A stretch of 33,729 nt of DNA from an uncultured bacterium (GTDB lineage: Bacteria; Chloroflexota; Dehalococcoidia; SM23-28-2; RBG-16-64-32). Numbering within the stretch: the first letter of the stretch is position 1; every line of letters starts with the position of its first letter. The DNA lies in the NCBI GenBank assembly GCA_965369585.1, contig CBDURB010000001.1, positions 1-33,729 of the forward strand, given 5' to 3'. The notes below the pieces were generated by a model. It searched no databases. It saw only the letters and a list, made by a program, of their open reading frames with translations, and was not told the origin of the DNA. Below are positions 657-33,729 of this stretch, one piece after another. The translations under genes and the position numbers were made by a program.

Positions 657-669
657 GGCCTGTACCGCA

Positions 670-12367: not shown

Positions 12368-12371
12368 AAAC

Positions 12372-12395: not shown

Positions 12396-13095
12396 GGGGA
12401 AGAGGAACCCGAACAGCTTGCTCTACTGGCTGCCGGCAGTTCAAGAGGCGGGAGTATCGATGCCCCGAACCGAATGCGTCGAGGTCGGGTTGGAGCACTT
12501 CGAGCGATGGCAGAATCACGAGGCACCCCTACCGAAGCCTGAGCGGTTCACGCAGGCGGCGGAGCGAATCGGCTACCCGCTGTTTCTCCGCACCGATCTG
12601 GCGTCTGCAAAGCACCACTGGCTCGATTCCTGCTATGTGGAGAGCCCGGATAACCTACTGCGGCACATCTGGGAGGTAGTCGAGTTCAACTTCATGGTGA
12701 ACATCATAGGGCTGCCTTGCGAGGCGCTGGTGTTCCGTGAGTACGTCCCCTTGGAGTCATCGTTCCGGGCGTTCAACGGGATGCCGGTGGCGCGGGAGCG
12801 TCGGTACTTCGTGAGGGGTGGAGTCATGGAGTGCCATCATCCCTACTGGCCCGAGGACGCCATCGCCACCCACGGCTCGCACAAGCCGATGTTGCCGCCG
12901 GACTGGCGGGCGAAGCTACGGGAACTGAACGCCGAGACAGCGGCGGAGGTCGAGCACCTGACACCGTTGGCTCAACGGGTAGGCGGGATCTTGGGAGGCT
13001 CCTGGTCCGTGGACTTCGCTCGGACGACCGCCGGAGAGTGGCTGCTGATTGACATGGCAGTGGCGGAGGAATCTTATCACGAGGTACATCCTTAA
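12394..13095 (+). CDS. ATP-grasp-fold protein (phage R2K-type), substrate unknown
   Basis: MGKRNPNSLLYWLP... and C-terminal ...GGSWSVDFARTTAGEWLLIDMAVAEESYH are typical of phage ATP-grasp proteins. GTG 12364 (GTGA overlap, in frame) would add MKTSPCHATA. Confidence 0.5.
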   Translation: MGKRNPNSLLYWLPAVQEAGVSMPRTECVEVGLEHFERWQNHEAPLPKPERFTQAAERIGYPLFLRTDLASAKHHWLDSCYVESPDNLLRHIWEVVEFNFMVNIIGLPCEALVFREYVPLESSFRAFNGMPVARERRYFVRGGVMECHHPYWPEDAIATHGSHKPMLPPDWRAKLRELNAETAAEVEHLTPLAQRVGGILGGSWSVDFARTTAGEWLLIDMAVAEESYHEVHP

Positions 13096-13133
13096 TGTCG
13101 CCTTCCCGTACAACTGCGATGGGGCCACGATGA
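13095..13133 (+). other. candidate relay mini-ORF MSPSRTTAMGPR*
   Basis: ATG 13095 overlaps TAA 13093-13095 (TAATG). TGA 13131-13133 overlaps ATG 13130 (ATGA). Spans cassette copy 11. Confidence 0.35.
13097..13120 (+). repeat. junction cassette copy 11: GTCGC-cttcccgtacaact-GCGAT
   Basis: N14 loop. Intergenic. Confidence 0.7.
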
Positions 13134-17132: not shown

Positions 17133-17597
17133 ATGAACCCCATCCTCGAATACGCCACCTCCCACCGGGCCGAGGCCTGCGGCATCCTAATCGGGAACTA
17201 TGGCGTGTCTCCCGGCGACGTGGAGGACATCGTGCAGGACGCCATGATCAAGGTGTTACGCGCTGACCCCTACGATGGCCACCGACGGTCCTACTGGCTG
17301 TTTGCCGTGCGGAGCGCGCTGCATGATTACTGGCGTCGGCGCAAGCTGCGGGCCGCTTGGCCGTTCAACTACAGTGAGGATGGCGGCCTCCTGACGGACG
17401 TAGAGGATCACCGCCAGGACTGTGCGCGCCAAACTGAGGCGGCTGAGGCGATCCAGGAGGCGTGTGCGATAGCCACGGCCACACAGCGGGAGGCGATAGC
17501 AGTCCTAGCGGGGAGCGGGGGCTCGCTCAGCCCGAACATCATGAAGGTGCAGTTGCATAAGCTACGGAAGCGGCTGCGGGCGGCGGCGGTGGCGTAG
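17133..17597 (+). CDS. phage-encoded sigma-70-family (ECF-like, two-domain) RNA polymerase sigma factor
   Basis: Region-2-like DVEDIVQDAMIKVLRA...YWLFAVRSALHDYWRRRK and region-4-like ATQREAIAVLAG...KVQLHKLRKRLR. 154 aa. Confidence 0.65.
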   Translation: MNPILEYATSHRAEACGILIGNYGVSPGDVEDIVQDAMIKVLRADPYDGHRRSYWLFAVRSALHDYWRRRKLRAAWPFNYSEDGGLLTDVEDHRQDCARQTEAAEAIQEACAIATATQREAIAVLAGSGGSLSPNIMKVQLHKLRKRLRAAAVA

Positions 17598-17601
17598 GGT
17601 T

Positions 17602-18885
17602 TTGTCGGTTATGTCGGTAGGTCGGGCACCCCCTCAGATACGAGACCGGATCGTCGGGCTGCGCCGTGTGCGCGCCGACAAGCTGCTGCCGAACCCCAAG
17701 AACTGGCGCCGGCACCCGAAGGCACAGGGCGAGGCGCTGAAGGGGCTCCTGCGGGAGATCGGCTACGCTGATGCCCTGCTTGCCCGGGAGACGCCGGAGG
17801 GCCTGATGCTGATCGACGGCCACTTGCGGGCGGAGACGACGCCCAAGACGAAGGTGCCCGTGCTGGTGCTGGATCTCGACGAAGCCGAGGCGGACAAGCT
17901 GCTGCTCACGCTGGACCCGCTGGCGGCGATGGCCGAGATGGACGGGGCGGCCACCCAGGCGCTGCTGGAGGGCGTGCAGACCGAGAGCGACGGCGTGCGG
18001 GCGATGCTGGCCGGCCTCCAGGACGAGGCGCAGCGTCTGCTGGGCCCGGAGGAGGGACTGACCGACCCCGACGCCGTCCCGGAGGCCCCGGAGCCGGTGG
18101 CCAAGCGCGGCGACGTGTGGGTGTGCGGCGACCACCGGGTCATGTGCGGGGACAGCACGGACGCGGAGGACGTGGCGCGGCTGATGGCGGGGGAGAAGGC
18201 GAGGCTGATGGCCACAGACCCTCCATACCTAGTGGACTATCAAGCGGATCGACATCCGCAGTCATGGGCGAACGCAAAGTATAACAAGCGCAACAAGCAC
18301 TGGGATGACTATAAGGACCCGGAGACTTCGGTCGCCTTCTTCGTCGCATATTTGGAGGTTGCAATAGCGGAGGCGGTCCGAGAGGACGCCCCGATCTACC
18401 AGTGGCACGCGAACATTAGACAGGCGATCGTCGAGTTGGCATGGGACCAAGTGGGACTGCATCGTCACCAGATCATCATCTGGGTCAAGGCTAGGGCAAT
18501 CCTGACTCGCTGTCATTTTATGTGGCAGCACGAGCCCTGCCTTTATGGCTGGATCAAGGGTAATCAGCCGCAACGGCGGCCACCAGCGAACGCACGATCC
18601 GTCTGGGAGATCAACCAGCAAGGCGATACCGACGGGGTGCATCCGACGCAGAAACCTGTCGAGCTGTTTGCTCGGCCGATCGAATTTCATACGCAGCCCG
18701 GCGAGATCTGCTACGACCCCTTCCTCGGCTCCGGCACCACCATGATCGCCGCCGAGCGCCTGGGGCGCCGCTGCTACGGCATGGAGATCGAGCCGCGGTA
18801 TGTCGACGTCGCGGTCCGTAGGTGGGAGGACTTCACCGGCCGGGAAGCTGAGCTTCTTCACAACACTGAGGCGGTTCCGGCTTGA
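17602..18885 (+). CDS. ParB-like nuclease domain / DNA methyltransferase (N4/N6 type) fusion
   Basis: N-terminal ...LLPNPKNWRRHP...LIDGHLR (ParB/Srx fold). MATDPPYLVDY and YDPFLGSGTT methylase motifs. Start is TTG 17602 or ATG 17611. Confidence 0.85.
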   Translation: MSVMSVGRAPPQIRDRIVGLRRVRADKLLPNPKNWRRHPKAQGEALKGLLREIGYADALLARETPEGLMLIDGHLRAETTPKTKVPVLVLDLDEAEADKLLLTLDPLAAMAEMDGAATQALLEGVQTESDGVRAMLAGLQDEAQRLLGPEEGLTDPDAVPEAPEPVAKRGDVWVCGDHRVMCGDSTDAEDVARLMAGEKARLMATDPPYLVDYQADRHPQSWANAKYNKRNKHWDDYKDPETSVAFFVAYLEVAIAEAVREDAPIYQWHANIRQAIVELAWDQVGLHRHQIIIWVKARAILTRCHFMWQHEPCLYGWIKGNQPQRRPPANARSVWEINQQGDTDGVHPTQKPVELFARPIEFHTQPGEICYDPFLGSGTTMIAAERLGRRCYGMEIEPRYVDVAVRRWEDFTGREAELLHNTEAVPA

Positions 18886-18948
18886 CTTCCTTCCCGAACA
18901 GAGTGAGTAGTGGAGCACCAAAAGGACTCAGTAGCCAGGAGGTGCTCG

Positions 18949-19332
18949 ATGGCGATAGAGGACAGGAACCTGCAGGCCGGCACGAAGCTGGTCGCGCGGT
19001 ACAAAGGCAAGGACTACACCTGCCAGGTGGTGGATACGAAGGAGGGGCGACGCTACATCGTCGACGATGGCGAGGACTTCGTGGGCGGCGAGTTCAAGAG
19101 TCCCTCGGCCGCCGGCAGCGCGGTCATGGGTGGTCAAGCCTGCAACGGCTGGCGGTTCTGGAGCCTCGAGGGCCAGGAGCCGAAGCCGCGCCAGAGCAAG
19201 GCGACGAAGCCCGACACGGTGGACTTCCGGCGCATCCCTGGTGGGCGGGCGTGGTGCGAGGCATGCTGCAAAGCCTTCAAGGTCGAGGCTGGCACGACGC
19301 CGACCGTCTGCCCCGAGGGCCACACGCCCTAG
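18949..19332 (+). CDS. DUF2924-like N-terminal domain plus C-terminal zinc-ribbon protein
   Basis: Trimmed to ATG 18949 (AGGAGG SD). AGTKLVARYKGKDYTCQVV...FKSPSAAGSAVMGGQACNGWRFWSL resembles DUF2924. C-terminal WCEACC...CPEGH. Confidence 0.5.
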   Translation: MAIEDRNLQAGTKLVARYKGKDYTCQVVDTKEGRRYIVDDGEDFVGGEFKSPSAAGSAVMGGQACNGWRFWSLEGQEPKPRQSKATKPDTVDFRRIPGGRAWCEACCKAFKVEAGTTPTVCPEGHTP

Positions 19333-19386: not shown

Positions 19387-19842
19387 ATGGCTAGACCAAC
19401 GAAGCTGACCCCGAAGGTGCAGAAGACCATCGTGGCCTATATCCGCTCCGGCGCCTTCTCCTGGGTAGCCGCAGAGGCCGCCGGCATCGCCTCGAAGACG
19501 TTCGAACGCTGGATGAAGGCGGGCGAGCAGGGCGACGAGGAGTACCACGACTTCTACGAGGCCGTGCGGGTGGCGCGCGGAGAGGCCCGCGTCACCGCCG
19601 AGGTCGACGTCCGCAAGGGCAACCCCCTAGCGTGGCTGCGTTACGGCCCAGGGCGCGACAGGGGGCCAGACGCGCCGGGCTGGACTGACAGCAAGGACGT
19701 GACGGTGAAGGGCGACGAGGACGCACCGATCCCCGTGGTGCTCCAGGTCGGTAACGCACCGGCCAAGAGACCGAAGGATATGACGGATAAAGAGCTGAAA
19801 AATGCGGAGGAGCTGCTGAGTGACGACAGCGACGGAGACTAG
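19387..19842 (+). CDS. terS: terminase small subunit
   Basis: MARPTKLTPKVQKTIVAYIRSGAFSWVAAEAAGIASKTFERWMKAG is the typical HTH N-terminus. Directly upstream of TerL. Confidence 0.7.
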   Translation: MARPTKLTPKVQKTIVAYIRSGAFSWVAAEAAGIASKTFERWMKAGEQGDEEYHDFYEAVRVARGEARVTAEVDVRKGNPLAWLRYGPGRDRGPDAPGWTDSKDVTVKGDEDAPIPVVLQVGNAPAKRPKDMTDKELKNAEELLSDDSDGD

Positions 19843-21271
19843 GCGGGATCTCGCCCGCACGGCGATCGACCAGGAGATCAAGCGCCGGCGCTGCGCCCGC
19901 TCCTTCCGCGCCTTCCTACCGTTCTGGCAGTTCGTCAACCGCGAGACCGGCGCCGTCCAGTCCTTCGCTGATCCCTGGCCGGGGCAGCGGGAGTTGGCCG
20001 AGACCTACGGGGAGCACCCCTGGGTCGTCGCCCTCAAGGCGGGCAAGCTCGGCTTCACCGAACTGGAGTGCGCCTACGACGGCTGGGTAGCACTGTTCCG
20101 TCAGGAGAACGCCCGTGTCCACCTATTCTCCCGCGATGGCCGCGCCTCGAAGGAACTCCTGGGCTACGTGCGCTTCGGGCTGACCCATCTGCCGTCCTGG
20201 ATGCGTCCCAATATCCTGGAGGACGTGGCCGGCGGTGACACCACCCAGAGCCTGAAGTTCAGCATGGGCCCCGATGATATCCGCACCGTCGTCTCCTATG
20301 CGTCCGGGCCCCATGTCTCGGTCGACGTCTCGGCACAGCACGCCCACGTTGACGAGCTGGCGAGGATGCCCTTCATCGAGAAGACCTGGAACACCGTTGT
20401 CTCCACCGTCGCACCCGGCGGCACCTGCCACATCGTTAGCCGCGGCCACGGCGACACCAACTACCTGGCGACGCTCTGGAACGCCGCCGTGGAGGGCACG
20501 AGTGACCTTCACCCCTTCTTCGCTCCTTGGCAGGCGAGGCCCGGACGTGATCAGGGCTGGTACGCGATACAGGCGGGGAAGATGACCCCTGCGGAGCTGG
20601 CCTACTTCGCGCCGGCGACGGCAGAGGAGGCGCTGTCCGCCGACGACATGGAGGTGTTCATTCCCATCGAACTCTGGGACGCCTGCTACGATCCGATGCT
20701 GGAGCGGATGCCGCTGGACCCAGACACAGAGGGGCTGGCTGGGAGCAAGACGCCAGTGGTGATAGCGGTAGACGCGGCCTCGACGCACGACAGCTTCGGC
20801 ATCGTGGCGATCACCCGGCACCCGGAGCGGCACGACGAGGTGGCGGTCCGCGGCGTGCGGAAGTGGGACCCGCCCAAGAAGAAGGGCGGTGAGATCGACT
20901 ACTCCGGGCCGGAGACCTTCCTGCGCGATCTGATCAACCTATTTAACGTGCAGCAGATCGCCTACGACCCCTATCAGTTGACCTCGATGATGCAACGGCT
21001 GCGCCGCGAAACGGCCGTGCGATGCCGGGAGTTCAACCAGCAGAAGGAGCGACTAATCGCCGACCGTGGGCTCTACGACCTCATCGTCAACAGGCGTATC
21101 AGCCACGACGGCAACACGATGGTGCGGGAGCACATGCAGAACGCGGCGGCCCAGCTACAGACGAAGGACGACAGCAAGCTCCGCATCATCAAGCGGGCCC
21201 CGGACAAGAAGATCGACCTGGTGATCTGCATCTCTATGGGAGCGAAGGAATGCCTGAGACTGAACATCTAG
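19820..21271 (+). CDS. terL: terminase large subunit
   Basis: GTG start overlapping terS. Walker-A-like LKAGKLGFT, Walker-B-like HAHVDELA, nuclease-domain VIAVDAASTHDSFGIVAI. Position between terS and portal. Confidence 0.8.
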   Translation: MTTATETRRDLARTAIDQEIKRRRCARSFRAFLPFWQFVNRETGAVQSFADPWPGQRELAETYGEHPWVVALKAGKLGFTELECAYDGWVALFRQENARVHLFSRDGRASKELLGYVRFGLTHLPSWMRPNILEDVAGGDTTQSLKFSMGPDDIRTVVSYASGPHVSVDVSAQHAHVDELARMPFIEKTWNTVVSTVAPGGTCHIVSRGHGDTNYLATLWNAAVEGTSDLHPFFAPWQARPGRDQGWYAIQAGKMTPAELAYFAPATAEEALSADDMEVFIPIELWDACYDPMLERMPLDPDTEGLAGSKTPVVIAVDAASTHDSFGIVAITRHPERHDEVAVRGVRKWDPPKKKGGEIDYSGPETFLRDLINLFNVQQIAYDPYQLTSMMQRLRRETAVRCREFNQQKERLIADRGLYDLIVNRRISHDGNTMVREHMQNAAAQLQTKDDSKLRIIKRAPDKKIDLVICISMGAKECLRLNI

Positions 21272-23705: not shown

Positions 23706-25459
23706 TGACGATGGACTACGCGAAACTGAGCGCGAAGATGAGGGAGATCGTCGAGAGGGACGGCCTAGACGTTCAAGGCCCTGAGGCTGAGAGCAAGCTC
23801 TTCGAGGCCGCCACGAAGGAGCTGGAGGCCGAGGGCCAGAAGTGCGCCCAGTGCGAGGGCAAGGGCGAAGGCGAGAAGTGCAGCGCCTGCGGCCCGTCGC
23901 TGGTTGAGATAGCGCCCGCGCCGCTGGCCGGGGCCACTACCTTCGGCGAGGCTGATGACTACGATGAGGCCCAGGAGGTCGAGAGCTATGCCTACCGGCT
24001 GGAATCGCGCTTCCGGGCCATCGTAGACAATATCTTCGCCAGCGATGCCACCCTGGCCGAGAAGGCCAACGAAGTCAAGGCGGCGGCGGCCGAGATGGAG
24101 GAGCGCCTGGGCAAGCCGCCAGAATCAGGCAACTGGTTCGGGAAAGCCAGGGAGAAACTGGGCGAGGCCCTGGGCCTGGGCGAGAAGGCCACCAAGCGCG
24201 AGGACGGTAAGGACTTCCCCGCCTCCGCCTACGCCTATGTGCCGGACGCGACGAAGCCGAGCACATGGAAGCTGCGGCTCACCAGGACGCCGGGGGGCAA
24301 GCCCGACGCCGGCATCGTCGGCGCCGCCGTCGCCGCGCTGGGCAAGGGGTTCCGCGGCCAGAAGGTGCAGATCCCGGCCGCTGCCCTGGCGGGCGTGAAG
24401 GCGAAGGTGCGGACCGCCTGGCGCAAGGCCAACCCCGACAAGAAGCCCGCCGACATGCCCACCGCCATCAAGGAGGCGGCGCCGGGCGCGTTCTCCGCGT
24501 TCAAGGACGCGCAGGGCAACTGGCGCTGGATGACGCTCACCAGCAACGTCTGGCGCGACCGCGATGGCGAGATCATCCCCGGTGACGCGCACGAGGGTGC
24601 CGTGTCCTACGCCGAGCGCACCAAGGATATGCCGGATCTGAGGCTCTGGCACGTCCCCGGTAGCCGAGTCGGCGTCGCTGACTGGGTCGATTTCACGCAC
24701 GGCTTCGTGCTGCACTCGGGCTCGTTCGACAAGGGCATGGAGGACGTAGCCGAGTCGCTGGCCACCACTGAGGAGCCGCTGGGCGTTAGCCACGGCTTCT
24801 ACCATAACAAGGATGAAGACAGCGACACCTACCCGTGGTATCGGGACTTCGAAGTGAGCGTACTACCGCTGGAGAAGGCGGCGAATCAATGGACGGAGTT
24901 CACAGCAGACAACACGAAGGAGGTTGCGATGGGACTCACTGACGAGAGGCGCGGGTTCTTGGTCAAGCACATCGGTGAAGGCCGGGTGACTGCGCTAGAG
25001 AAGCTCCTGGAGGAGAAGGAGGAGGACCTGAAGTCGGGCAAGGTCGACTTCAAGGAGGTGCTGGCCGAGGCCATCGAGGCCGCGCCGACACCCGACCCCA
25101 AGCCTGCCGAGGGTAAGGGCGAAGGCGACGCACCGAAGGGCGATGACGCTATCGCCAAACTGGTCACGGTGATCGAGGCGCAGGGCACACAGCTCACCGA
25201 GATCGCCACGGCCCAGGCCGAGCAGGGGGAACAGATCAAGGCCCTGCAGGCATCCGACGACGAGAAGATCGCCGCCAAGATGGCTCCCCAGCGGCAGCCG
25301 CCGGCCGGCGGCGAGCGCCCGACGGACGACAAGGGCAACGTGCTCACCGAGGCCGAACTCAAGGCCAAGGGCATCGACCCCGAGGAGGCCCTCGACTCCG
25401 AGAAGTTGGAGAAGACCCCCGGCGGCAGGGCGCTGAAGCAGATCGCCGGCATCAAATAG
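23705..25459 (+). CDS. prohead protease (S78/HK97-like core) fused to scaffold-like coiled-coil C-terminus, with N-terminal Cys4 motif
   Basis: TGATG overlap. FKDAQGNWRWMTLTSNVWRDRDGEIIPGDAH...LRLWHVPGSRVGVADWVDF fits a prohead-protease core. Glu/Lys/Ala-rich helical tail. CAQCEGKGEGEKCSAC near the N-terminus. Confidence 0.55.
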   Translation: MTMDYAKLSAKMREIVERDGLDVQGPEAESKLFEAATKELEAEGQKCAQCEGKGEGEKCSACGPSLVEIAPAPLAGATTFGEADDYDEAQEVESYAYRLESRFRAIVDNIFASDATLAEKANEVKAAAAEMEERLGKPPESGNWFGKAREKLGEALGLGEKATKREDGKDFPASAYAYVPDATKPSTWKLRLTRTPGGKPDAGIVGAAVAALGKGFRGQKVQIPAAALAGVKAKVRTAWRKANPDKKPADMPTAIKEAAPGAFSAFKDAQGNWRWMTLTSNVWRDRDGEIIPGDAHEGAVSYAERTKDMPDLRLWHVPGSRVGVADWVDFTHGFVLHSGSFDKGMEDVAESLATTEEPLGVSHGFYHNKDEDSDTYPWYRDFEVSVLPLEKAANQWTEFTADNTKEVAMGLTDERRGFLVKHIGEGRVTALEKLLEEKEEDLKSGKVDFKEVLAEAIEAAPTPDPKPAEGKGEGDAPKGDDAIAKLVTVIEAQGTQLTEIATAQAEQGEQIKALQASDDEKIAAKMAPQRQPPAGGERPTDDKGNVLTEAELKAKGIDPEEALDSEKLEKTPGGRALKQIAGIK

Positions 25460-25480
25460 AGCGAGCAACAACCGGCATCC

Positions 25481-25500
25481 AGCCCGCCCCTCGGCGGGCT
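25481..25500 (+). terminator. GC hairpin between the protease/scaffold and capsid genes (attenuator-like, weak T-tail)
   Basis: AGCCCGCC-cctc-GGCGGGCT (8-bp stem), then TTGT. Followed by GAGGAGGAGGAGGA and ATG 25537. Confidence 0.45.
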
Positions 25501-25536
25501 TTGTCGTGGAGATGAGGAGGAGGAGGAAACGACGAC

Positions 25537-27006
25537 ATGAAGGACACATCCGTACTCGATAGCCTGGTGGCCGAGATCGAGGAAAAACTCGCCGCCAAGC
25601 AGGGGGGCGTCCGCTACAAGCACACGTCGCCCGGCACCCCGATATCCACGGGGTACTTCCACGGCCCAGGGGGGCTACTCAGCTTCCCTGGGGTAGATCA
25701 AGATCTGTTCCATACCATAGTGGGGAACAAGGGCATCATGAGTCAGCTCCCAGCGATCCCCACACTATTCACCGACCCGACCTTCTACACCCTTACGGGC
25801 GTGCAGGCGGGCGTTGGCGACCAGCCGACGACAGCGTGCGGCGATCCGCCCGTCGCTGGGCTCACCAAGGGCTGCCTCGTCACCGCGCCATTGGGCCGCT
25901 ACGAATATGCGACCCCGGAGCTCGACCTTAACCGGTTGAGCCAGCGAGTCGACCGTGCCGATCCGACGGACCTACGGATAGTGGGCTCTCCCATCGACGC
26001 CGACGGCTTCTGGGCCACCGGCCCCGGCGACCCGTCGGTGCCCAGCGACGTGCTGACCAACGCGATCTCGAAGTTCCTGTTCGAGCGTGGGGTCTTCGCG
26101 CATCGAGACCTGTCGCAGCGGCTCTGGGTCGATAGTCCCGCCAACAACGTGGGCTTTGCCACCCAGTTCAGCGGGTTCCAGGTCCTCGTCAACACCGGTT
26201 TCGTGGACGCCATCACCGGCACGGCCTGCCCGTCCCTGGATTCGGACGTCAAGGACTTCAACTTTGCCAACGTGGGCGCCAACTGCGCGGGCCTGGTCAC
26301 CGCCCTCACGAGCATGTTCCACTACCTGAAGAGCCTGTCCTCGCGCACCGGCGTGGACCCAGTTCGCTGGGTGTTCGTCATGCGCGAGTCGGCATTCGAC
26401 CAGATCGTGCGCTGCTGGCCCTGTAGCTACCTCACCAGCATGTGCCAGGTCACCAACGCCTCCGGCCAGCGCGTCAACGTCGACGCCGGCGACCAGGTCG
26501 CCATGCGTGACGCGATGATGCAGGGCAAGTTCCTGCTCATCGACGGCGCCCAGATCGAGGTCATCATCGACGACGGCATCCCCGAGAACAACTCGGCCCA
26601 CCCCAACGTGGGCGAGGGCTGCTTCAGCTCCGACATCTACATCATCCCCATGTCGGTCCTGGGCGGTACTTCGGTCACGTTCATGGAGTATTTCCAGTAC
26701 CAGACGGCCGCAGTCTTGGATGCCTTCGCCAAAGGTGTCCTGGGCGAGGTCGAGGGGCCCTGGCTTACGTGGCCGGAACAGAACCAACAGTGTTTCACAC
26801 TTAACTGCAAGATCGAGCCTCGGCTGATCCTGAGGACGCCGTGGCTTGCCGGTCGGCTGCAGAACGTGCAGTACTGCCCGCTGCAGCACGAGCGCGATCC
26901 GTTCCCTGGTCAGGGCTACCACGTCGACGGTGGCAAGACCAGCATCCCTGGTCCTAGCTACTGGGGTCTCTGGGAACGCGGTGGCGGAGGCACCGGCAGC
27001 CGCTAG
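25537..27006 (+). CDS. major capsid protein (presumed HK97 fold)
   Basis: 489 aa directly after the protease/scaffold. Exceptionally strong reiterated SD. Bracketed by stable hairpins. Confidence 0.75.
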   Translation: MKDTSVLDSLVAEIEEKLAAKQGGVRYKHTSPGTPISTGYFHGPGGLLSFPGVDQDLFHTIVGNKGIMSQLPAIPTLFTDPTFYTLTGVQAGVGDQPTTACGDPPVAGLTKGCLVTAPLGRYEYATPELDLNRLSQRVDRADPTDLRIVGSPIDADGFWATGPGDPSVPSDVLTNAISKFLFERGVFAHRDLSQRLWVDSPANNVGFATQFSGFQVLVNTGFVDAITGTACPSLDSDVKDFNFANVGANCAGLVTALTSMFHYLKSLSSRTGVDPVRWVFVMRESAFDQIVRCWPCSYLTSMCQVTNASGQRVNVDAGDQVAMRDAMMQGKFLLIDGAQIEVIIDDGIPENNSAHPNVGEGCFSSDIYIIPMSVLGGTSVTFMEYFQYQTAAVLDAFAKGVLGEVEGPWLTWPEQNQQCFTLNCKIEPRLILRTPWLAGRLQNVQYCPLQHERDPFPGQGYHVDGGKTSIPGPSYWGLWERGGGGTGSR

Positions 27007-27030
27007 TCTGGCTGAGACAAGAAGCAAGCA

Positions 27031-27063
27031 AGGAGGGGGCGGGCTCAGCCCCCGTCCCCTCCT
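27031..27063 (+). terminator. stable GC hairpin after the capsid gene (no T-tract)
   Basis: AGGAGGGG (27031-27038) pairs with CCCCTCCT (27056-27063). Inner GGGC-tca-GCCC stem. Confidence 0.4.
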
Positions 27064-27112
27064 ACCAAGGCAATCGAAACGATGAAGACCTAGTAGCCGG
27101 AGGAAACTGAAC

Positions 27113-27937
27113 ATGCCAAATGGTGGTGCGTCAGCTGAGTGGACGCTCGAGCAAATACGGCATCTCCTCACCACTCGCCTTACGCCTTTTGGCGACGACT
27201 TTCTCATTGAGGTACAGAAGGGCAGCATCCCCGGGCATTCGTTGGTGCACAAGTTCGGGAGGAACGATAACGTGCCGATGAACTCGTGGGCGTTCATCAA
27301 CTTGCTGGGCTTCACAGCTTGGCCCCTTTCTGCCCCAACAACCGTCCGGATAAAGGCTGGGGGAGATGCCGCCGACGTAGCTGGTGGGGCCGGGGCACGA
27401 GAGATAATCGTTCAGGGGCTCGACGACAGCTTCAACGTGGCCGAAGAGGCAATAGCCACGAACGGTATCAATGTCAGCGCGGCTACGGTGACGTCCTTCT
27501 GGCGTGTCCACCGGGCGTTCGTGTCAGCGGTAGGGATCTACGGAGCAGCGAACACTGCTGCGGTGACGGTGGAGAACAGCGGTGGTGGTACCGACGTGAT
27601 CCAAATCGGCGTCGGAGAGGGGCAAACGCAGTTCGGGGGCTGGACCGTACCAATAGACAAGACGGCCTATCTACTGAGTCTGCACATGCACGTGGACTCG
27701 AAAAAGATCGCTAACATTCGGATGTTCACGAGGGAGGACATCGACGATGTTGTGGCTCCGATGAAGAGCAAGCGGCTCGGTCTGTTCTTCGACGGTGTCA
27801 TTGGCAACGTCCCATACCGGGCCAAGGGGCCCGAGATGGCGATACCCCAGAAGACGGACATCTGGCTGGAGGCGTTCGGGGATGGAGCTATAGCGGAAGC
27901 TGCTTGCGACTTCGAGCTGCTGGTGGTCGATAACTGA
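27113..27937 (+). CDS. hypothetical virion-module protein (beta-rich), candidate decoration protein or glycan acceptor
   Basis: GGAGGA SD. 274 aa. ...GHSLVHKFGRNDNV...REIIVQGLDD...ATNGINV...FWRVHRAF... Its stop overlaps the dehydratase start (ATGA). Confidence 0.55.
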   Translation: MPNGGASAEWTLEQIRHLLTTRLTPFGDDFLIEVQKGSIPGHSLVHKFGRNDNVPMNSWAFINLLGFTAWPLSAPTTVRIKAGGDAADVAGGAGAREIIVQGLDDSFNVAEEAIATNGINVSAATVTSFWRVHRAFVSAVGIYGAANTAAVTVENSGGGTDVIQIGVGEGQTQFGGWTVPIDKTAYLLSLHMHVDSKKIANIRMFTREDIDDVVAPMKSKRLGLFFDGVIGNVPYRAKGPEMAIPQKTDIWLEAFGDGAIAEAACDFELLVVDN

Positions 27938-28872
27938 TGAAGGTTCTCGTCACCGGCGGGGCGGGCTTCCTCGGGCGCGGCATCCTGCGTCGCATAGAGC
28001 GCGGCGGCCTCGACTGGGAGGTGACAGCCTACAGCCGGGACGAAACGAAGCAGGACGAGTGCCGGCGGCGCTACCCCTTCGCTCGCTACATCCTGGGCGA
28101 CGTGAGGGATGCCGATCGGCTGAGGGTGGCCATGATGGGCCACGACATCGTGATCCACGCGGCGGCCCTGAAGTACATACCCGAGGCGGAGGTCAACGCC
28201 ACCGAGTGCGTGCGGGTGAACGTGGGTGGCACACAGGCCGTGATGGTGGCCGCGCAGGAGGCGGGCATCAAGCGAGTGGTGGGGATCTCCACCGACAAGG
28301 CGGTGCAGCCCGTCAACGTCTATGGCTGCTCCAAGATGGCGATGGAGCGGCTGTTCGCCGACACCGCCCAGTTCCAGGGCGGCCCCGACTTCACATGCGT
28401 CCGCTACGGCAACGTGGTGGGTAGCACGGGGTCGGTCATCCCGCTGTTCCGGCGCCAGGTCGAGGAGCTGGGCCGGGTGCGCATCACCAACCCCGCGATG
28501 ACACGGTTCTGGATGGCCGCGGACGAGGCGATCGACCTCATAATGCTGGCCCTGGAGCGGGCACGACCCGGCAGCATCGTGGTTCCCCAGGCGCGGGCTA
28601 TGACGATCCTTGACGTGGCCAAGGCCGCCACGAGTGACGACGTGAAAGTGGAGATCATCGGAGAGCGGCCCGGCGAGAAGCTGCACGAGATGCTGATCCA
28701 CTACGAGGAGTCGGTGCGGGCCGTGATCGAGCACGATCCGTTCCACTTCCAGCTCGTGCCGCCCGGCCAGCGGGTCGGCGAGGAGGCGTTCACCCTGGCC
28801 TCCCACACGCCGAATAGCTTCATGGCGATAGACGAGATGCGAGAACTGATAGCCGACGCCGAGGAGATCTGA
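27937..28872 (+). CDS. UDP-sugar 4,6-dehydratase of the PseB/FlaA1/CapD (Polysacc_synt_2) type
   Basis: VTGGAGFLG Rossmann motif. ISTDKAVQPVNVYGCSKMAMERLF (STDKA...YGxxK), VRYGNVVGSTGSVIPLF and ITNPAMTRFWM blocks are diagnostic of this SDR subfamily. Confidence 0.85.
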   Translation: MKVLVTGGAGFLGRGILRRIERGGLDWEVTAYSRDETKQDECRRRYPFARYILGDVRDADRLRVAMMGHDIVIHAAALKYIPEAEVNATECVRVNVGGTQAVMVAAQEAGIKRVVGISTDKAVQPVNVYGCSKMAMERLFADTAQFQGGPDFTCVRYGNVVGSTGSVIPLFRRQVEELGRVRITNPAMTRFWMAADEAIDLIMLALERARPGSIVVPQARAMTILDVAKAATSDDVKVEIIGERPGEKLHEMLIHYEESVRAVIEHDPFHFQLVPPGQRVGEEAFTLASHTPNSFMAIDEMRELIADAEEI

Positions 28873-28889
28873 TGCAGGAGTGCCCATAG

Positions 28890-29618
28890 ATGCAACTCCC
28901 GCCCATCACCGTCATCATGACGATGTTCATCCCGCCCATCGATGGCCCCTACGGCGGCTGGTCACGCCTACAGATGGCCAAGCAGACCATTATGTCCTGG
29001 GGTCGCCACATGAAGTACACCGGCGACCTGCAGCTACTCGTCGCCAACGACTCGGTCGCCATCGATGACGAGATAGCGAACCAGATGGCGGTCGACTTCA
29101 GTCCCTGGCCCGTCGTGGTGGGCCATACCCACGGCCGCGGCCTCGGCGGTGGCCTGAACCACGGCCTGAAGCGTGCCCTGGAGACATCCCCGCTGGTCAT
29201 CTACGCCGACGACAGCTATTCGCTCATCGAGGACATCGACCTGACGCCCTGGGCATCGGTGCTGATGAAGCATGAGGACCTCGGCGCCGTCTCGCTGATG
29301 CCGCCCCGCCCGGAGCAGCGCGGCGGTCGCGTGGCCTACTTCCACAACATCCGCACGGAAGGGGTCGCCGGCGTGACGTTCGAGCGGCAGGGCTACACCT
29401 GGAACGGCCGTCCGCTGATGTACCACAAGCGCTTCTTCGACGCCTACGGGGAGACACCGGAGGGCTGCACGGGCTACGAGTGGGAGCAACGGTACGCGGA
29501 GAGGTTCGTGGCCACGCCGGGGCCGGACATCCTGTTCGGGTTCATTGACCCCTGGCAGCACGTATGGGGCGTGCTGCTGGGCAACGCCCCGGCGGGATGG
29601 TCTGGGGAGAAGCCGTAA
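28890..29618 (+). CDS. GT-A fold (family-2-like) glycosyltransferase
   Basis: ITVIMTMF start strand, VANDS and YADDSYS (DxD-like) motifs. 242 aa. Confidence 0.5.
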   Translation: MQLPPITVIMTMFIPPIDGPYGGWSRLQMAKQTIMSWGRHMKYTGDLQLLVANDSVAIDDEIANQMAVDFSPWPVVVGHTHGRGLGGGLNHGLKRALETSPLVIYADDSYSLIEDIDLTPWASVLMKHEDLGAVSLMPPRPEQRGGRVAYFHNIRTEGVAGVTFERQGYTWNGRPLMYHKRFFDAYGETPEGCTGYEWEQRYAERFVATPGPDILFGFIDPWQHVWGVLLGNAPAGWSGEKP

Positions 29619-29761
29619 TGGCTTCAGTGACGCTCCTCCTGAATGTGTTCCTGCTTGAGCGTCCACTACCGCGCCCGCTTCCCCGTGAGTTAGCGGGCTA
29701 CGAGGCTATATGGGTTCCAGAGAAGCAGCAATATTTCTTCATCGTCGTGGAGACAAGCTGA
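29618..29761 (+). CDS. small hypothetical protein (47 aa)
   Basis: TAATG overlap at 29618 and TGATG at 29759-29763. Lower GC. Uncertain. Confidence 0.3.
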   Translation: MASVTLLLNVFLLERPLPRPLPRELAGYEAIWVPEKQQYFFIVVETS

Positions 29762-29922
29762 TGAAGTGTCCCGTCTGCCGCCAGCACTGCGGCTCTACGT
29801 TATCCAAGCAGTACGCCAAGGACTACCTCACGTCTAAGGTGCCCCACCATGTGCGGCTGTGGCGTCGGGTCAAGCGGACCCTGTCCCCACTGGGCTGGCC
29901 TGCTGCGGGGTGGACCCGATGA
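29761..29922 (+). CDS. small basic CxxC protein (53 aa)
   Basis: MKCPVCRQHCG... High GC3. Its stop overlaps ATG 29919 (ATGA). Confidence 0.45.
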   Translation: MKCPVCRQHCGSTLSKQYAKDYLTSKVPHHVRLWRRVKRTLSPLGWPAAGWTR

Positions 29923-30341
29923 AGGTTGACCTGGGCTGCGGCGTCAACAAGCCGGAGGGCTATATCGGCATCGACAACGTGACGGAGGCCGACATCCGAG
30001 CCGACCTGCGCGTTGGCATCCCCCTGGCCGCCAACAGCGCCGAGGAGGTGCGCGCGAAGGACTTCCTGGAGCACATACCGGACACCATCGCCATCATGAA
30101 CGAGTGCTGGCGGGTGCTGGAGCCCGGTGGCGCCCTGGAGATCATTGTGCCGCGCTGGCCGCACGTCGACGCCGTCAAGGACCCGACGCATATCCGCTTC
30201 TTCGCCGTGGAGACCTTCACGGAGTACTTCGCGGGGCCGGACCGGCTGGCCGGGGAGTACCGGATGCACATGTGGGACATCACCCAGCTAGTCTTCGAGG
30301 ATCACCGCATCTGGGTGACGCTCAAGCCGAGGGGTAAGTGA
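29919..30341 (+). CDS. class I SAM-dependent methyltransferase (Methyltransf_11/23-like)
   Basis: Trimmed to ATG 29919. VDLGCGVNKPEGYIGID motif I, FLEHIPD, ECWRVLEPGGALEI. Confidence 0.7.
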   Translation: MKVDLGCGVNKPEGYIGIDNVTEADIRADLRVGIPLAANSAEEVRAKDFLEHIPDTIAIMNECWRVLEPGGALEIIVPRWPHVDAVKDPTHIRFFAVETFTEYFAGPDRLAGEYRMHMWDITQLVFEDHRIWVTLKPRGK

Positions 30342-30847
30342 TGCGCGACGAGGTCATGGCCGCCCTCCGCGACTGGTATCCAGAGCACCTGTCGGAAGGG
30401 CGCGTCGTGCTGGAGCTCGGCTCCCGCGAGGTCTACGGCGGCGTGCCGCGGACGATCTTCACCGGCAACCACAAGTACACCGGTATCGACATGCTGGCCG
30501 GGAAGGGCGTCGACAAGGTGATGAACTTCCACGACTTGAAGACACGGTATAAGCCGCAGTCCGTCGACACCGTGCTGTGCCTGGAGACGCTGGAGCACGA
30601 CGACAGGTTCTGGCTGACGCTGGAACAGGTGGCGCGTGTCCTGAAGCGCGGGGGTCACTTCGTACTCTCGGTGCCGACGCTGGGCTACCGGATCTATCAC
30701 CCCTACCCCGAGGACTACTACCGGTTCACCAAGCCCGCATTCACGGAGGTGCTCCTCGACCCAGCCTTCTACGAAGCACTGGACATCAGGGAGATCAGCA
30801 CCAGCGACGAGGTGGACACCCTGGCGGCCATCGGGAGGCGCAGATAA
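30341..30847 (+). CDS. class I SAM-dependent methyltransferase
   Basis: VLELGSREVYGG...YTGIDM...LCLETLEHDDRFW...VLKRGGHFVLSVP. Confidence 0.65.
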   Translation: MRDEVMAALRDWYPEHLSEGRVVLELGSREVYGGVPRTIFTGNHKYTGIDMLAGKGVDKVMNFHDLKTRYKPQSVDTVLCLETLEHDDRFWLTLEQVARVLKRGGHFVLSVPTLGYRIYHPYPEDYYRFTKPAFTEVLLDPAFYEALDIREISTSDEVDTLAAIGRRR

Positions 30848-30851
30848 AGCG

Positions 30852-31862
30852 ATGGTGAAGAAGGTTGCGGATCGCGCGGACATTACCGTCGAGCGCGAGG
30901 GCGGTGCCGTGGTCAAGAGGGCACACACTGAGGTGGGCCGAGCGGAACTGGTGAATGAGCTGCGCTTCCTGAAGGCGCTGGCACCGACGCCGTTTGTGCC
31001 GCAGGTGAAGGGCTACGAAGATGGCGTGCCTGGTCTGATGGTTACCGTCACCGAGGACATCGGCGAAGACGAGCCCGTGCAGGACGAGGCCGCGTTCCTG
31101 CGGCGCTGCATAGCGCTGATCCATGCCTTCAGGGAGCGCAGCATACGCCACGGCGACCTAACGGCCAAGAACCTGATCGTGCGGGGCGACTACCCCGTGG
31201 CGCTCGACTTCGGCGAGTCGCGTTTCGCCGAAGAGGACAGCCCCGATAAGCGGCCCAAGCCGGACGCCTACTACTTCTGGCGGGCCATCAGCGAGAAGCA
31301 TCCAGGGATGCGCACCGTAGACCGTTGGATCGCCGTCAGGGGCGCGCTCGGCGGCGACGAGGACGGCGCGTGGGACTGCCTAGCCGGGCGAGATGTGCTC
31401 GATCTGGGCTGCCACACCGGTGAGACGGCGGCGATGGCCGCGGCGGAGGGGGCGCGGGCCGTGGGTGTCGACAGGGACGCCGATATCGTCGGGCAGGCCC
31501 GCGACTTGTGGGGCGGGTTCGGCGCCGACACGATCGGATGCCAGTTTCTCCGCGCCGATATTGTGGGCTACGAGCCGGAGGCGGCGGACATCGTGTTCCT
31601 GTTCTCTACCTGGGCCTACATGGTGCAGGAGCACGGCAGGCAGGCTGCTTTGGAGACGCTGGCCCTCCTGATAGCGCGCTCCCAGGTGCTGTTCTTCGAG
31701 ACGCAACTAAGAGGCGACGGCCCCGGCCCCGACTTCTTGCAATCCCACGCCGATGTCGGGGCACTGCTAAACCGCTACGGCGAGGCAGAGAGGCTGGCGA
31801 TGATCCCCGTGGCGGGCCGGGGCGCGTACCGATCCGTGTGGAGTGTGAAAGGAGGCCGTTGA
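30852..31862 (+). CDS. protein-kinase-like (Kdo/WaaP/APH-type) domain fused to a class I SAM methyltransferase domain
   Basis: IRHGDLTAKNLIVRGDYPVALDFGES gives an HxDLxxxN catalytic loop plus DFG. C-terminal VLDLGCHTGETAAMAAAEGARAVGVDRD...ADIVFLFSTWAYM gives the MTase motifs. Confidence 0.65.
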   Translation: MVKKVADRADITVEREGGAVVKRAHTEVGRAELVNELRFLKALAPTPFVPQVKGYEDGVPGLMVTVTEDIGEDEPVQDEAAFLRRCIALIHAFRERSIRHGDLTAKNLIVRGDYPVALDFGESRFAEEDSPDKRPKPDAYYFWRAISEKHPGMRTVDRWIAVRGALGGDEDGAWDCLAGRDVLDLGCHTGETAAMAAAEGARAVGVDRDADIVGQARDLWGGFGADTIGCQFLRADIVGYEPEAADIVFLFSTWAYMVQEHGRQAALETLALLIARSQVLFFETQLRGDGPGPDFLQSHADVGALLNRYGEAERLAMIPVAGRGAYRSVWSVKGGR

Positions 31863-31863
31863 T

Positions 31864-32256
31864 ATGGCCACGAAAAAGAAGGCAGCCCCGCGCAAGCGGA
31901 GCGCGAAGCTGAAGCCGCCAGCGGAGCCGCTGGTAGAGGTATCTGAGCCGGAACCGGTGGAGGGGCAAGGGCCGGTGGTGTCGCTGCCATTCGAGCCGAC
32001 GGAAAAGACGCCGCCGCCGGAACTCGATGTGCCCGCCGACGGCATGCTGATCCGAAGAGACGGCGCCCCCGTCGTGTACGTGATGGACAAGGGCCGGCGG
32101 CGACCGTTCGCCAACGCCGATGTACTCGAGGACTGTGTCCGTCTCCACCTTACCGCCGAAGGGGCTAGCTGGAACGAGGTCGTCGTGCTGTCGCATGAGG
32201 AGATCGACCGGATACCGCAGGGGCCGGAGGTCACGGGGCCAGCGGATCTGCAGTAG
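31864..32256 (+). CDS. hypothetical protein with Lys-rich N-terminus
   Basis: 130-aa ORF, 1 nt after the upstream stop. MATKKKAAPRKRSAKLKPP... Confidence 0.5.
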   Translation: MATKKKAAPRKRSAKLKPPAEPLVEVSEPEPVEGQGPVVSLPFEPTEKTPPPELDVPADGMLIRRDGAPVVYVMDKGRRRPFANADVLEDCVRLHLTAEGASWNEVVVLSHEEIDRIPQGPEVTGPADLQ

Positions 32257-32259
32257 GCC

Positions 32260-32967
32260 GTGATCGTCATCATGCTGCTCACCTACGACCGCCTGGACGT
32301 GGCGAAGATCACGATGGAGAGCGTCGCCGCCAACCTCAACACCCCAGAGGACGTGTGGATGCACATAGCGGACGACGGCAGCAGCCAGAAGTACCGCGAT
32401 GAGCTGCTGGAGCTGGCCCACAAGCACTACGGCGACAAGGTGAGCATCACCAACTCGGAGCGTAGGGGCTACGGCGGGAACTACAACACCGCCACCCAGA
32501 TCGTGCATCAGATCGCGGACATTGTGCTGCCCCTGGAGGACGACTGGAAGCTAACGCGGCTCCTGGACATCGTCCCCATCGTCGAGGTGCTGCGGGCTGG
32601 CGTCCTGGACTGCGTCAGGATGGGCTATATCGGCTACACCGATGAACTGCGCGGGAGGTTGCTGCATCACGGCGGACTGCACTGGCTGGAGTTCGATCCT
32701 GCGAGCCCGGAGCAGCACGTCTTCACGGGAGGTCCCCGGCTGGAGAGGGTGGCCTTTGGGCGACAGGTCGGCCCCTGGCCCGAGGGGATAGAGCAGGGTG
32801 CCACCGAGCAGGCCGTCGCGGCCCGGGCAGAGGCCCGGCTGAAGGTGGCGTGGCCAGTCGATATCATCCGCCCCACGGGCGATGCCTTCGTACACATCGG
32901 GACATACAAGGCGGGCCACCCAGAGGCTGGCGGTAGCGAGCACGCAATGCAGGCGGCGGAAGCATGA
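32260..32967 (+). CDS. family-2 (GT-A) glycosyltransferase
   Basis: IVIMLLTYDRLDVAK..., HIADDGSS, PLEDDW (DxD). Confidence 0.7.
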   Translation: MIVIMLLTYDRLDVAKITMESVAANLNTPEDVWMHIADDGSSQKYRDELLELAHKHYGDKVSITNSERRGYGGNYNTATQIVHQIADIVLPLEDDWKLTRLLDIVPIVEVLRAGVLDCVRMGYIGYTDELRGRLLHHGGLHWLEFDPASPEQHVFTGGPRLERVAFGRQVGPWPEGIEQGATEQAVAARAEARLKVAWPVDIIRPTGDAFVHIGTYKAGHPEAGGSEHAMQAAEA

Positions 32968-33729
32968 GCGATCTTAACGTTTACATCTATCCCCAATTCG
33001 GCGGGGAGGACCGAGGCGACGGCGGCATCCGGCGTGTGGTGGAGGCGCAGCTACGGCATCTCCCCGCCCGTGGCTGCAGTGTGGTGGATTCACCGGATGC
33101 TGCCGACCTCATCGCCGTCCACATCGCCGCCGACAAGCGGCTGCTGGAACGCTACCCCCACATACCTCTTATCGTCCACAACCACGGCGTGTACTGGGCC
33201 GAGTTCGAGTGGACCGCTGCTTGGTTCGCGAAGGCCAACGCGTCCTGCATGGAGTCGATTCGCCAAGCGGACGCGGTGACGGCCCCCAGCGAGTGGGTGG
33301 CACGATCCCTACGGCGCCACAGCCTGCGCCCCGTGAGGGCCATTGGCCACGGCGTTGATCTGGAAGAGTGGGAGCTTGGAGGGAATGGGGGATACGTGCT
33401 CTGGAACAAGACGCGCGTCGACCCCGTCTGCGATCCTGAACCCGTACACGAACTCGCCCGCCTTGCCCCAAAGGTGCCCTTCGTGAGCACCTACGGCAAC
33501 CCCAATATCCCGAACCTGCAGGTGACGGGGCTGTTGCCCTACCACGAGGGGAAGGACGCCATCAGCAAGGCAGCAGTCTATCTCTGCACGACGCGGGAGA
33601 CGTTCGGCATCGGCACCTTGGAAGCGATGGCTGCGGGCGTGCCGGTTCTGGGCTGGCGCTGGGGCGGGCAGGTCGACATCATCGAGCACGGCGTCACTGG
33701 CTGGCTGGCCGAGCCCGGCGACTACGAGG
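32964..33729 (+). CDS. GT-B fold family-4-type glycosyltransferase, 3' end cut by window edge
   Basis: ATGA overlap at 32964. Not in the ORF track because no stop is reached. ...TRETFGIGTLEAMAAGVPVLGWRWGGQVDIIEHGVTGWLAEPGD is the GT1/GT4 E-x-F-G...EAMA.G.PV motif. Confidence 0.75.
   Translation, partial: MSDLNVYIYPQFGGEDRGDGGIRRVVEAQLRHLPARGCSVVDSPDAADLIAVHIAADKRLLERYPHIPLIVHNHGVYWAEFEWTAAWFAKANASCMESIRQADAVTAPSEWVARSLRRHSLRPVRAIGHGVDLEEWELGGNGGYVLWNKTRVDPVCDPEPVHELARLAPKVPFVSTYGNPNIPNLQVTGLLPYHEGKDAISKAAVYLCTTRETFGIGTLEAMAAGVPVLGWRWGGQVDIIEHGVTGWLAEPGDYE

Follow-up and report, generated by a model that had tools for sequence, protein, structure and literature searches.

Why should a tailed phage carry a block of sugar-modifying and glycosyltransferase (GT) genes immediately behind the gene for its major capsid protein, and to what would the product of such a block be attached? 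The question is raised by the right-hand end of a 33,729-nucleotide stretch of DNA filed under an uncultured bacterium of the Chloroflexota (assembly GCA_965369585.1, contig CBDURB010000001.1, positions 1 to 33,729); this whole stretch is referred to here as the window, and the block of glycan genes as the cassette. A sequence-only reading of the window had proposed that the cassette serves either to glycosylate virion proteins or to remodel the host envelope late in infection, and the genes that it listed were all recovered in place on the plus strand. On balance we favour the first proposal, in the form of cytoplasmic synthesis of a methylated, capped glycan that is attached to virion proteins, with the capsid protein as the prime candidate. 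Our reasons are as follows: the cassette lies between capsid and tail genes and is deeply conserved; its enzymes are soluble, and functions for initiation, flipping, export and ligation are missing; its tailoring genes vary; and the mycobacteriophages offer a precedent. Gene content, the HK97 fold of the capsid protein, the capsid–tail position, tailoring variability and the lack of membrane and export components were observed directly; the acceptor and the sugar chemistry are inferred.

Position and conservation of the cassette

The protein encoded directly upstream of the block had no sequence match in Pfam, PHROGs, NCBIfam or the PDB and no tblastn match in 50,697 GenBank phage records (INPHARED), and a megablast of positions 25000–33729 against 50,697 phage records also returned nothing. 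Its designation as the major capsid protein, made in the sequence-only reading, was upheld by structure prediction. An AlphaFold (AF2) model of the 489-amino-acid (aa) protein, built on 49 homologues and with a predicted local distance difference test (pLDDT) score of 75.6, matched solely HK97-fold phage capsids and encapsulins at the top of a Foldseek search of the PDB (E about 1e-9, probability 1.0), and the protein was thus confirmed by modelling as an HK97-fold major capsid protein. The family is large and purely metagenomic, with at least 526 close homologues and 613 clusters at 50% identity.

The surroundings of the cassette were compared in 30 loci encoding relatives of this capsid protein (19 from IMG/VR, seven contigs binned into metagenome-assembled genomes (MAGs) and four longer ENA/JGI/Logan loci with precomputed Pfam labels) and in three added loci, L032, reached by a downstream walk from L002, and L036 and L037, found via homologues of the kinase-methyltransferase described below. 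Sugar-tailoring genes, with SDR, GT2 and methyltransferase types among them, followed the capsid gene in more than 25 relatives, at 31–96% capsid identity, and the linkage of capsid to glycan genes was kept down to approximately 31–35%. The recurring order was capsid, hairpin, a dehydratase or epimerase of the short-chain dehydrogenase/reductase (SDR) type, tailoring and transferase genes that differ from locus to locus, a GT4–GT2–GT2 protein and then the tail side. Of the loci, 17 extend 5 kb or more beyond the capsid gene; every one of these held at least one GT, and in 15 of them the block was closed by the GT4–GT2–GT2 protein (790–1090 aa), the GT2 domains of which resemble chondroitin synthase and heparosan synthase. 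Beyond this fusion came conserved proteins of ∼420–460 aa and ∼500–520 aa, the second with a BNR/Ycf48-like propeller. A protein of chaperone size, the tape measure protein (phrog_1533, 1e-66) and Dit came next, so that in relatives the tail genes sought after the cassette do follow it. Judged by this synteny, the cassette is an ancestral part of the structural module of the lineage.

Seen from the window alone, the block might have been a host genomic island or a lysogenic-conversion moron at a prophage end, as the window ends inside the cassette with its own downstream flank unseen and has minus-strand genes of lower GC content at its left end (1–2700). Homology searches, which had been named as the way to expose such an island, instead placed the block between an upstream capsid gene and downstream tail genes in L032, L037 and at least ten other viral contigs. 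These flanks contradict an island or an integrase-side moron. In addition, the GC content at third codon positions (GC3) of the cassette genes, 0.83–0.90, equals that of the capsid and portal genes, and the homologues found were all on metagenomic, phage-like contigs. We therefore reject this explanation as highly improbable. Known conversion GTs adjoin an integrase gene and attachment (att) site and act via membrane proteins of the GtrA/B/C type. A layout resembling gtrABC serotype conversion was not seen here: there was no integrase among the window open reading frames (ORFs) scanned, the cassette contained neither a GtrA/GtrB-type protein nor any other membrane protein, and it occupies the capsid–tail position, in agreement with the sequence-only reading on this point.

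Between relatives the middle of the block varies, and its members include a second SDR, a DegT aminotransferase, a GNAT protein, methyltransferases, GT2 enzymes, beta-helix proteins and the kinase-methyltransferase. In L027, the capsid protein is 75% identical to that of the window, the 274-aa protein encoded between capsid and dehydratase genes (p274) 87% and the dehydratase 82%, and the GT-A and methyltransferase genes are replaced with genes for a second SDR, a DegT aminotransferase, a GNAT protein, a GT2 enzyme and a beta-helix protein. L031 (capsid 51% identical) has almost the gene set of the window in a different order, and L036, at 88–91% nucleotide identity from TerL to the stop codon of the GT2 gene, has the same genes over that span. 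Conserved flanks around a replaceable middle are typical of exposed, antigenically diverse glycan loci such as those for O-antigen and capsule and the flagellin-glycosylation islands. We note that right-handed beta-helix proteins (weakly GH28/NosD-like) and a C5-epimerase-like protein were found in the cassettes or head modules of relatives (L027 18035–18976; L028 13241–14737 and 4903–5718; L037 3349–5205) and that they hint at polymer-level glycan modification or at depolymerase activity. A small membrane protein of the DUF1360 family is encoded directly after the GT fusion in two distant relatives (L032 9601–9993; L037 16310–16624) and is the sole membrane protein associated with the block. 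The MAG bins of the relatives disagree, with three of the class Anaerolineae and others from Gemmatimonadota, Paceibacterota and Thermotogae, and Chloroflexota hosts for the lineage are a tentative assignment.

The cassette genes had also been described as wired into the late structural operon. Their place inside the virion-structure module stands, but a strong hairpin after the capsid stop codon means that they cannot be taken to be strictly co-transcribed with the capsid gene. The GC-rich stem has no U tract, and the fold of 27005–27112 had a predicted energy of -40.7 kcal/mol (z = -2.5). An equivalent hairpin (12–17-bp stem, no U tract) was present in all eight relatives examined (L001, L002, L027, L028, L030, L031, L036 and L037), and over the nine genomes the stem sequences differ while position and structure are kept. 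It is possible that the hairpin acts as an attenuator, a terminator or an mRNA-stabilizing element, and it may set the capsid:enzyme ratio by lowering enzyme expression relative to that of the capsid.

The cassette enzymes and their predicted product

Families were assigned by sequence searches of Pfam, PHROGs, NCBIfam and the PDB, with checks of GC3 and of membrane segments added, and the results agreed with the sequence-only reading on a 4,6-dehydratase, a GT-A enzyme, two S-adenosylmethionine (SAM) methyltransferases, a kinase-methyltransferase fusion, a Lys-rich ORF, a GT2 and a truncated GT4. The dehydratase scored 260 bits against PF02719 (cut-off 20.2) and had Helicobacter pylori FlaA1/PseB (2gn4) as its best PDB match (4e-65); its TGGAGFLG (Rossmann), STDKA and YGCSK (YxxxK) motifs align with those of FlaA1 2gn4. 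As its score against the PseB equivalog TIGR03589 (273 bits) lies under the cut-off of 407.75, it is filed as PseB/FlaA1-like and not as PseB. Neither of the PseB-pathway partners, an aminotransferase and an acetyltransferase, was found in the window cassette, and L027 has both. Most relatives with a Polysacc_synt_2 dehydratase have it as the first enzyme encoded in the cassette; in L037 other genes lie between the capsid and dehydratase genes.

The enzyme encoded next (28890–29618) had no match in any of the four databases. It is assigned by homology as a probable GT2-type (GT-A fold) member: BLASTP matched it to the GT2 enzyme at 32260 (1e-6) with alignment of the NDS/DDGS and DDS/EDD motifs (nucleotide-binding, DxD-type), and its family cross-matches GT2 families down to 1e-26. 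Relative to L036, its substitutions are distributed 10/8/38 over the three codon positions, a strong third-position bias. The two tiny ORFs that follow, counted as genes in the sequence-only reading, are doubtful as coding genes; their GC3 values are 0.62 and 0.68 as against 0.83–0.90 in real genes, they show no third-position substitution bias relative to L036 (88% identical), and among the related loci compared homologues were not found beyond the near-identical DNA of L036. The two small methyltransferases are paralogues, as shown by cross-matches between their families, and the first (29859–30341) is probably, on its family match, a sugar O-methyltransferase. The Lys-rich ORF of 130 aa had no match in the four databases, and in L036 its conservation is limited to the C-terminal half (57%). 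The GT2 enzyme at 32260–32967 scored 32.2 bits against Glycos_transf_2 (cut-off 23.3), has the DDGS and EDD motifs, and has homologues in L002, L027 and L028 that are 62–69% identical. The last gene, cut by the window end, had been listed as a GT4. Its GT4 domains were borne out (40.5 and 47.8 bits, each above cut-off); in relatives this is the first domain of the GT4–GT2–GT2 protein, and the 879-aa protein of L027 begins with a sequence 79% identical to the part in the window. There was no convincing membrane segment in any cassette enzyme, and Pfam and NCBIfam searches found no flippase, polymerase, ATP-binding cassette (ABC) transporter, phosphoglycosyl transferase or ligase in the cassette.

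The kinase-methyltransferase fusion has 50 homologues, all metagenomic and all with the two-domain layout. A profile of 39 of these placed WbdD at the top of all PDB sequences (4azw, 4uw0, 4ax8 and 4azs; E = 6e-11), with profile positions 181–282 in the methyltransferase half aligned to WbdD 69–170 and positions 20–117 in the kinase half aligned to WbdD 275–385. The 39 homologues show no or almost no variation at K22, E36, H100, D102, N107 and D119 and in motif I (D184-L-G186); these sites correspond to the kinase Lys, Glu, HxD..N and metal-binding Asp and to methyltransferase motif I, and for this reason both domains appear to be active. WbdD halts polymerization of the O9a polymannose by phosphorylating its non-reducing end and then methylating it (PMC3482155). 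By analogy, we propose that the phage enzyme caps the glycan or limits its chain length. Together with a multi-domain GT containing GT2 domains like those of polymerizing synthases, it would imply an oligosaccharide or polysaccharide rather than single sugars.

By homology, the pathway would run as follows. The PseB/FlaA1-type dehydratase would convert a host uridine diphosphate (UDP)-hexose or UDP-N-acetylhexosamine to a 4-keto-6-deoxy sugar; the two GT-A enzymes and the terminal multi-domain GT (GT4, with two GT2 domains in relatives) would build a chain on a soluble acceptor; the two small SAM methyltransferases would O-methylate its sugars; and the WbdD-like enzyme would phosphorylate and methylate the non-reducing end, thereby capping the chain or limiting its length.

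GTs are also known that glycosylate phage DNA (reviewed in PMC12619734), and such anti-restriction hypermodification has to be considered for a window rich in DNA-modification genes, with three DNA methyltransferases and a DUF5131 protein. The annotated part of the window contained no hydroxymethylase or other base-hypermodification enzyme. The combination of five GT domains, a 6-deoxy-sugar dehydratase and a WbdD-like terminator points instead to an oligosaccharide or polysaccharide, and the genes lie in the structural module, away from those for replication. On the basis of the missing hypermodification enzyme, the structural-module position and the chain-type gene set, DNA glycosylation was rejected; we regard it as very unlikely indeed.

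The acceptor and competing explanations

If the glycan is placed on the particle, the capsid protein offers a plausible site. Its C-terminal tail (...GGxTSxPGPSYWxLW, or FPxDPY.VDGGxTSRPGPSYYxLW for the family) is conserved with an invariant Ser and is disordered in the AlphaFold prediction, which makes this tail a candidate glycan acceptor. Of eight conserved cysteines in the family (C101, C113, C231, C296, C303, C362, C419 and C447), six are invariant and two nearly so. Possible roles for the cysteines and the tail are disulfide or metal stabilization, or service as a modification site.

A further probable virion protein is p274. The sequence-only reading had called it beta-rich, and its AF2 model (pLDDT 85.8) is a double beta-sandwich. 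Beyond phrog_8198 the four sequence databases gave no match; Foldseek returned jelly-roll and beta-sandwich matches of low template modelling score from the PDB, none of them confident, and from BFVD only uncharacterized Caudovirales proteins. A cupin-type sugar isomerase or epimerase was considered and found no support in the structural matches. The gene is compositionally foreign (GC3 0.71), and its product is 87–95% identical in L027 and L036, above the capsid protein (75–88%). It had been described as coupled to the dehydratase gene through a 4-nt ATGA overlap at 27937; the junction is in fact a 1-nt TGATG stop/start overlap, and this is kept in L027 and L036, that is, in three genomes. 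A homologue lies within the cassette in L037. In unrelated phages, homologues occur in tail-like modules (L034 and L035 also carry p274) and, in T4-like cyanophages, between gp16 and gp17 (cyanophage Syn1, L033 5908–6699); the protein encoded upstream of these homologues is unrelated to anything in the capsid lineage. We suggest that p274 is probably an accessory protein of the virion, mobile and tied to the cassette, and it might serve as an acceptor, a lectin or a decoration protein.

Several findings weigh against glycosylation of the virion. A 4-reductase or aminotransferase that would complete a 6-deoxy sugar is missing from the window cassette, although relatives have them. The individual WbdD domain matches are weak (independent E-values 1e-4 and 0.0095), the order of kinase before methyltransferase is reversed with respect to WbdD, and the coiled-coil ruler is absent, the methyltransferase being the last domain of the phage protein. 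The usual substrates of WbdD and multi-domain GTs are polyprenol-linked glycans at the membrane, so that a lipid-linked product destined for the host envelope is conceivable. The cassette proteins have no detectable similarity to mycobacteriophage enzymes. L036 has no GT4 gene at the corresponding junction, where homology ends exactly (L036 12072, window 32967) and small ORFs of 154, 211, 153, 55, 107 and 171 aa stand in its place; these gave no informative family matches, and the junction is either a recombination breakpoint at a gene boundary or an assembly join. Finally, the hairpin could end transcription, in which case the cassette might be a separate transcription unit.

Late remodelling of the host envelope is the main alternative. 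Here the cassette would make a polyprenol-linked polysaccharide, similar to an O-antigen, teichoic acid or S-layer glycan, which host machinery would export and which could block superinfection or keep progeny off debris. WbdD, the best structural relative of the fusion, works on undecaprenol-linked O-antigen; the GT2 domains of the terminal fusion are like those of polymerizing chondroitin and heparosan synthases; PHROGs labels the GT domains as GtrB-like or moron; and relatives encode the DUF1360 membrane protein after the GT fusion and polymer-acting beta-helix and C5-epimerase-like proteins in their cassettes. Yet a phosphoglycosyl transferase for initiation, a flippase, a transporter and a ligase are all missing from the cassette, its enzymes are without membrane segments, a capsid–tail position fixed across deep divergence would be hard to explain, and, unlike the case of known conversion GTs, no integrase was present among the window ORFs scanned. 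We judge envelope remodelling to be unlikely. Another explanation is a free or otherwise targeted glycoconjugate outside the virion, either an intracellular or secreted polysaccharide or a modified non-structural phage or host protein. The hairpin, which may uncouple the cassette from capsid expression, would suit such a product, but conserved synteny argues against it and the literature searched held no precedent, and we consider it improbable.

Virion glycosylation can also be put in a more specific form, which we offer as a speculative proposal of rather low probability. The HK97 capsids of the lineage, and possibly the tails too, would be coated with a polysaccharide that the virus itself encodes, controlled in length, bearing a methyl-phosphate cap and made by a wholly cytoplasmic pathway from dehydratase to GT-A enzyme, GT4–GT2–GT2 polymerase and WbdD-like terminator. 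O-antigen-style logic would have been repurposed, and hypervariable tailoring would give each phage its own ‘serotype’.

Known systems and other features of the window

Phage virion glycosylation as a concept is already known. Cluster O mycobacteriophages have O-methyltransferase and GT genes within the head operon (Cresawn 2015, PMC4351075), and Freeman et al. (2023), as cited in two later articles, reported modified capsid and tail-tube subunits in mycobacteriophages (PMC11600133, PMC12619734), with the glycans placed at the C-termini of these subunits in one of them (PMC12619734). In Cluster O (Corndog) and Cluster F (Che8), as here, GT and methyltransferase genes lie within the head-assembly module on the same strand without serotype-conversion architecture, and the C-terminal glycans there have a possible counterpart in the conserved, flexible capsid C-terminal tail here. 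The systems differ in that the present cassette follows the capsid gene and does not lie between portal and protease genes, extends over at least about 6.6 kb with up to five GT domains, and has its own 4,6-dehydratase, kinase-methyltransferase fusion and tri-domain GT; moreover, the lineage is uncultured and known from genes alone, whereas glycans have been reported on virion proteins of the mycobacteriophages. Against the 50,697 INPHARED records the tri-domain GT gave partial matches, with coverage of 34% or less and none to a mycobacteriophage, and the PseB-like dehydratase occurred in six records, all unannotated and mostly fragmentary, none being an annotated isolate with the gene beside that for the capsid.

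Three further systems offer parallels. Escherichia coli O9a pairs a bifunctional kinase and SAM methyltransferase, the chain terminator WbdD, with WbdA, a multi-domain GT4 polymerase, on the cytoplasmic side (PMC3482155). The phage fusion differs in its reversed domains, missing coiled-coil ruler, low sequence similarity and viral setting, and the phage cassette is without an ABC transporter or genes for undecaprenol-linked initiation. Chloroviruses and mimiviruses likewise encode a nucleotide-sugar 4,6-dehydratase, methyltransferases and several cytoplasmic GTs that are independent of host secretory glycosylation (PMC9614988, PMC5408694), and in full-text literature searches virus-encoded 4,6-dehydratases were tied to capsid glycosylation for giant viruses only. 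Those viruses are eukaryotic, with double-jelly-roll capsids, whereas here the carrier is a tailed phage of roughly 50–70 kb with an HK97 capsid, and the genes are not orthologous. Bacterial islands for glycosylation of flagellin and other surface proteins also use a PseB/FlaA1-like first enzyme and place variable genes beside that for a polymerizing structural protein, and relatives such as L027 add a DegT aminotransferase and a GNAT protein, as in the pseudaminic-acid and bacillosamine routes. The difference lies in the PseB score, which is under the equivalog cut-off, and in the absence from the window of a PseC–PseI set and of a Maf-type transferase.

To our knowledge, self-glycosylation of phage particles has so far been shown in a few actinobacteriophages only, with small sets of GT and methyltransferase genes. 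The sequence-only reading knew of no described phage cassette of this composition. That holds for the composition, to which lineage-wide conservation can be added, but GT and O-methyltransferase genes in a head operon had a precedent in Cluster O. What is new is a siphovirus-like lineage without a cultured member and with a larger, more autonomous pathway, comprising a PseB-like dehydratase, up to five GT domains, three methyltransferase domains (class I SAM by Pfam in the window) and a WbdD-like terminator, and a cassette that belongs to the ancestral core of the virion module and is hypervariable. In an entire environmental phage lineage (the 613 capsid clusters above), a large autonomous glycan pathway is core to this module, and its tailoring genes swap among close relatives like bacterial O-antigen genes. 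Should the glycan be carried on the virion, phage glycan coats would be older and commoner than thought and phage surfaces would show serotype-like diversity, possibly selected by host defences, grazers, adsorption to non-host surfaces or particle stability; the soluble WbdD-like terminator and multi-domain GTs could then also be used in cytoplasmic glycoengineering. A PseB-like dehydratase gene directly downstream of this capsid family provides a genomic marker for such phages.

Table 1. Features of the window, with positions numbered from its first nucleotide.
Feature	Position	Strand	Basis or remark
Trans_reg_C regulator	396–833	-	left end
CAP/SCP-domain protein	1278–2045	-	left end
Weak C5-methylase-like ORF	10390–11052		
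N6/N4 methylase	11081–12367		
R2K ATP-grasp protein	12364–13095		
DUF5131 protein	13049–14152		
Small sigma-70 region 2 protein	17133–17597		just upstream of ParB-methyltransferase and terminase genes
ParB–N6/N4 methylase fusion	17602–18885		
RAMA-domain protein	18910–19332		
Large terminase TerL	19820–21271		phrog_9, TerL_nuclease
Portal–MuF fusion	ends 23322		
Scaffold-like protein, 600 aa	23657–25459		
Major capsid protein, 489 aa, HK97 fold	25537–27006	+	AlphaFold model and Foldseek
GC-rich hairpin, 13-bp stem, no U tract	27031–27063	+	∼25 nt past capsid stop codon
p274, 274 aa, double beta-sandwich	27113–27937	+	phrog_8198, 1e-27
Nucleotide-sugar 4,6-dehydratase, PseB/FlaA1/CapD-type (Polysacc_synt_2)	27937–28872	+	PF02719, 3e-77
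Divergent GT-A (GT2-like) glycosyltransferase	28890–29618	+	homology to GT2 at 32260
Spacer, 240 nt, with two tiny ORFs (29564–29761, 29710–29922)	29619–29858		coding doubtful
Small class I SAM methyltransferase	29859–30341	+	Methyltransf_11, 6e-6; 63%-identical homologue in L031 cassette
Second small class I SAM methyltransferase	30338–30847	+	Methyltransf_11, _31, _23; 48%-identical homologue in L031
Kinase-like and SAM methyltransferase fusion, WbdD-like	30852–31862	+	APH/Bud32 (weak, N-terminal half), Methyltransf_25
ORF with Lys-rich N-terminus, 130 aa	31864–32256	+	GC3 0.80
GT2 (GT-A) glycosyltransferase, core cassette gene	32260–32967	+	PF00535, 1.3e-7
GT4 (GT-B), N-terminal 255 aa, gene cut by window end	32964–33729	+	Glyco_transf_4, Glycos_transf_1

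The rest of the window (GC content ∼64%) is transcribed almost wholly from the plus strand from ∼2.9 kb on (Table 1). Upstream of the head module it carries early and middle phage genes for a PD-(D/E)XK nuclease, an ASCH-domain protein, three DNA methyltransferases, DUF5131 and R2K ATP-grasp proteins and a protein with sigma-70 region 2. Scans for sigma-70 promoters and U-tract terminators gave nothing useful and tell little where, as here, a phage is GC-rich and encodes a sigma-like protein itself; the lack of sigma-70 consensus promoters is explained if this protein (17133–17597) is a phage sigma factor that drives the late genes, as it may be. DNA-modification genes are dense in two parts of the window (10390–14152 and 17602–18885). 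The left end (1–2700), with minus-strand genes and a dip in GC content (0.58 at 1001–2000), may be given over to regulatory or moron genes, or may represent the genome's other arm. The gene for the scaffold-like protein, which has a CxxC...CxxC motif at its N-terminus, is mosaic, with ∼55% identity over the N-terminal third and 81–95% over the C-terminal part in L001 and L036.

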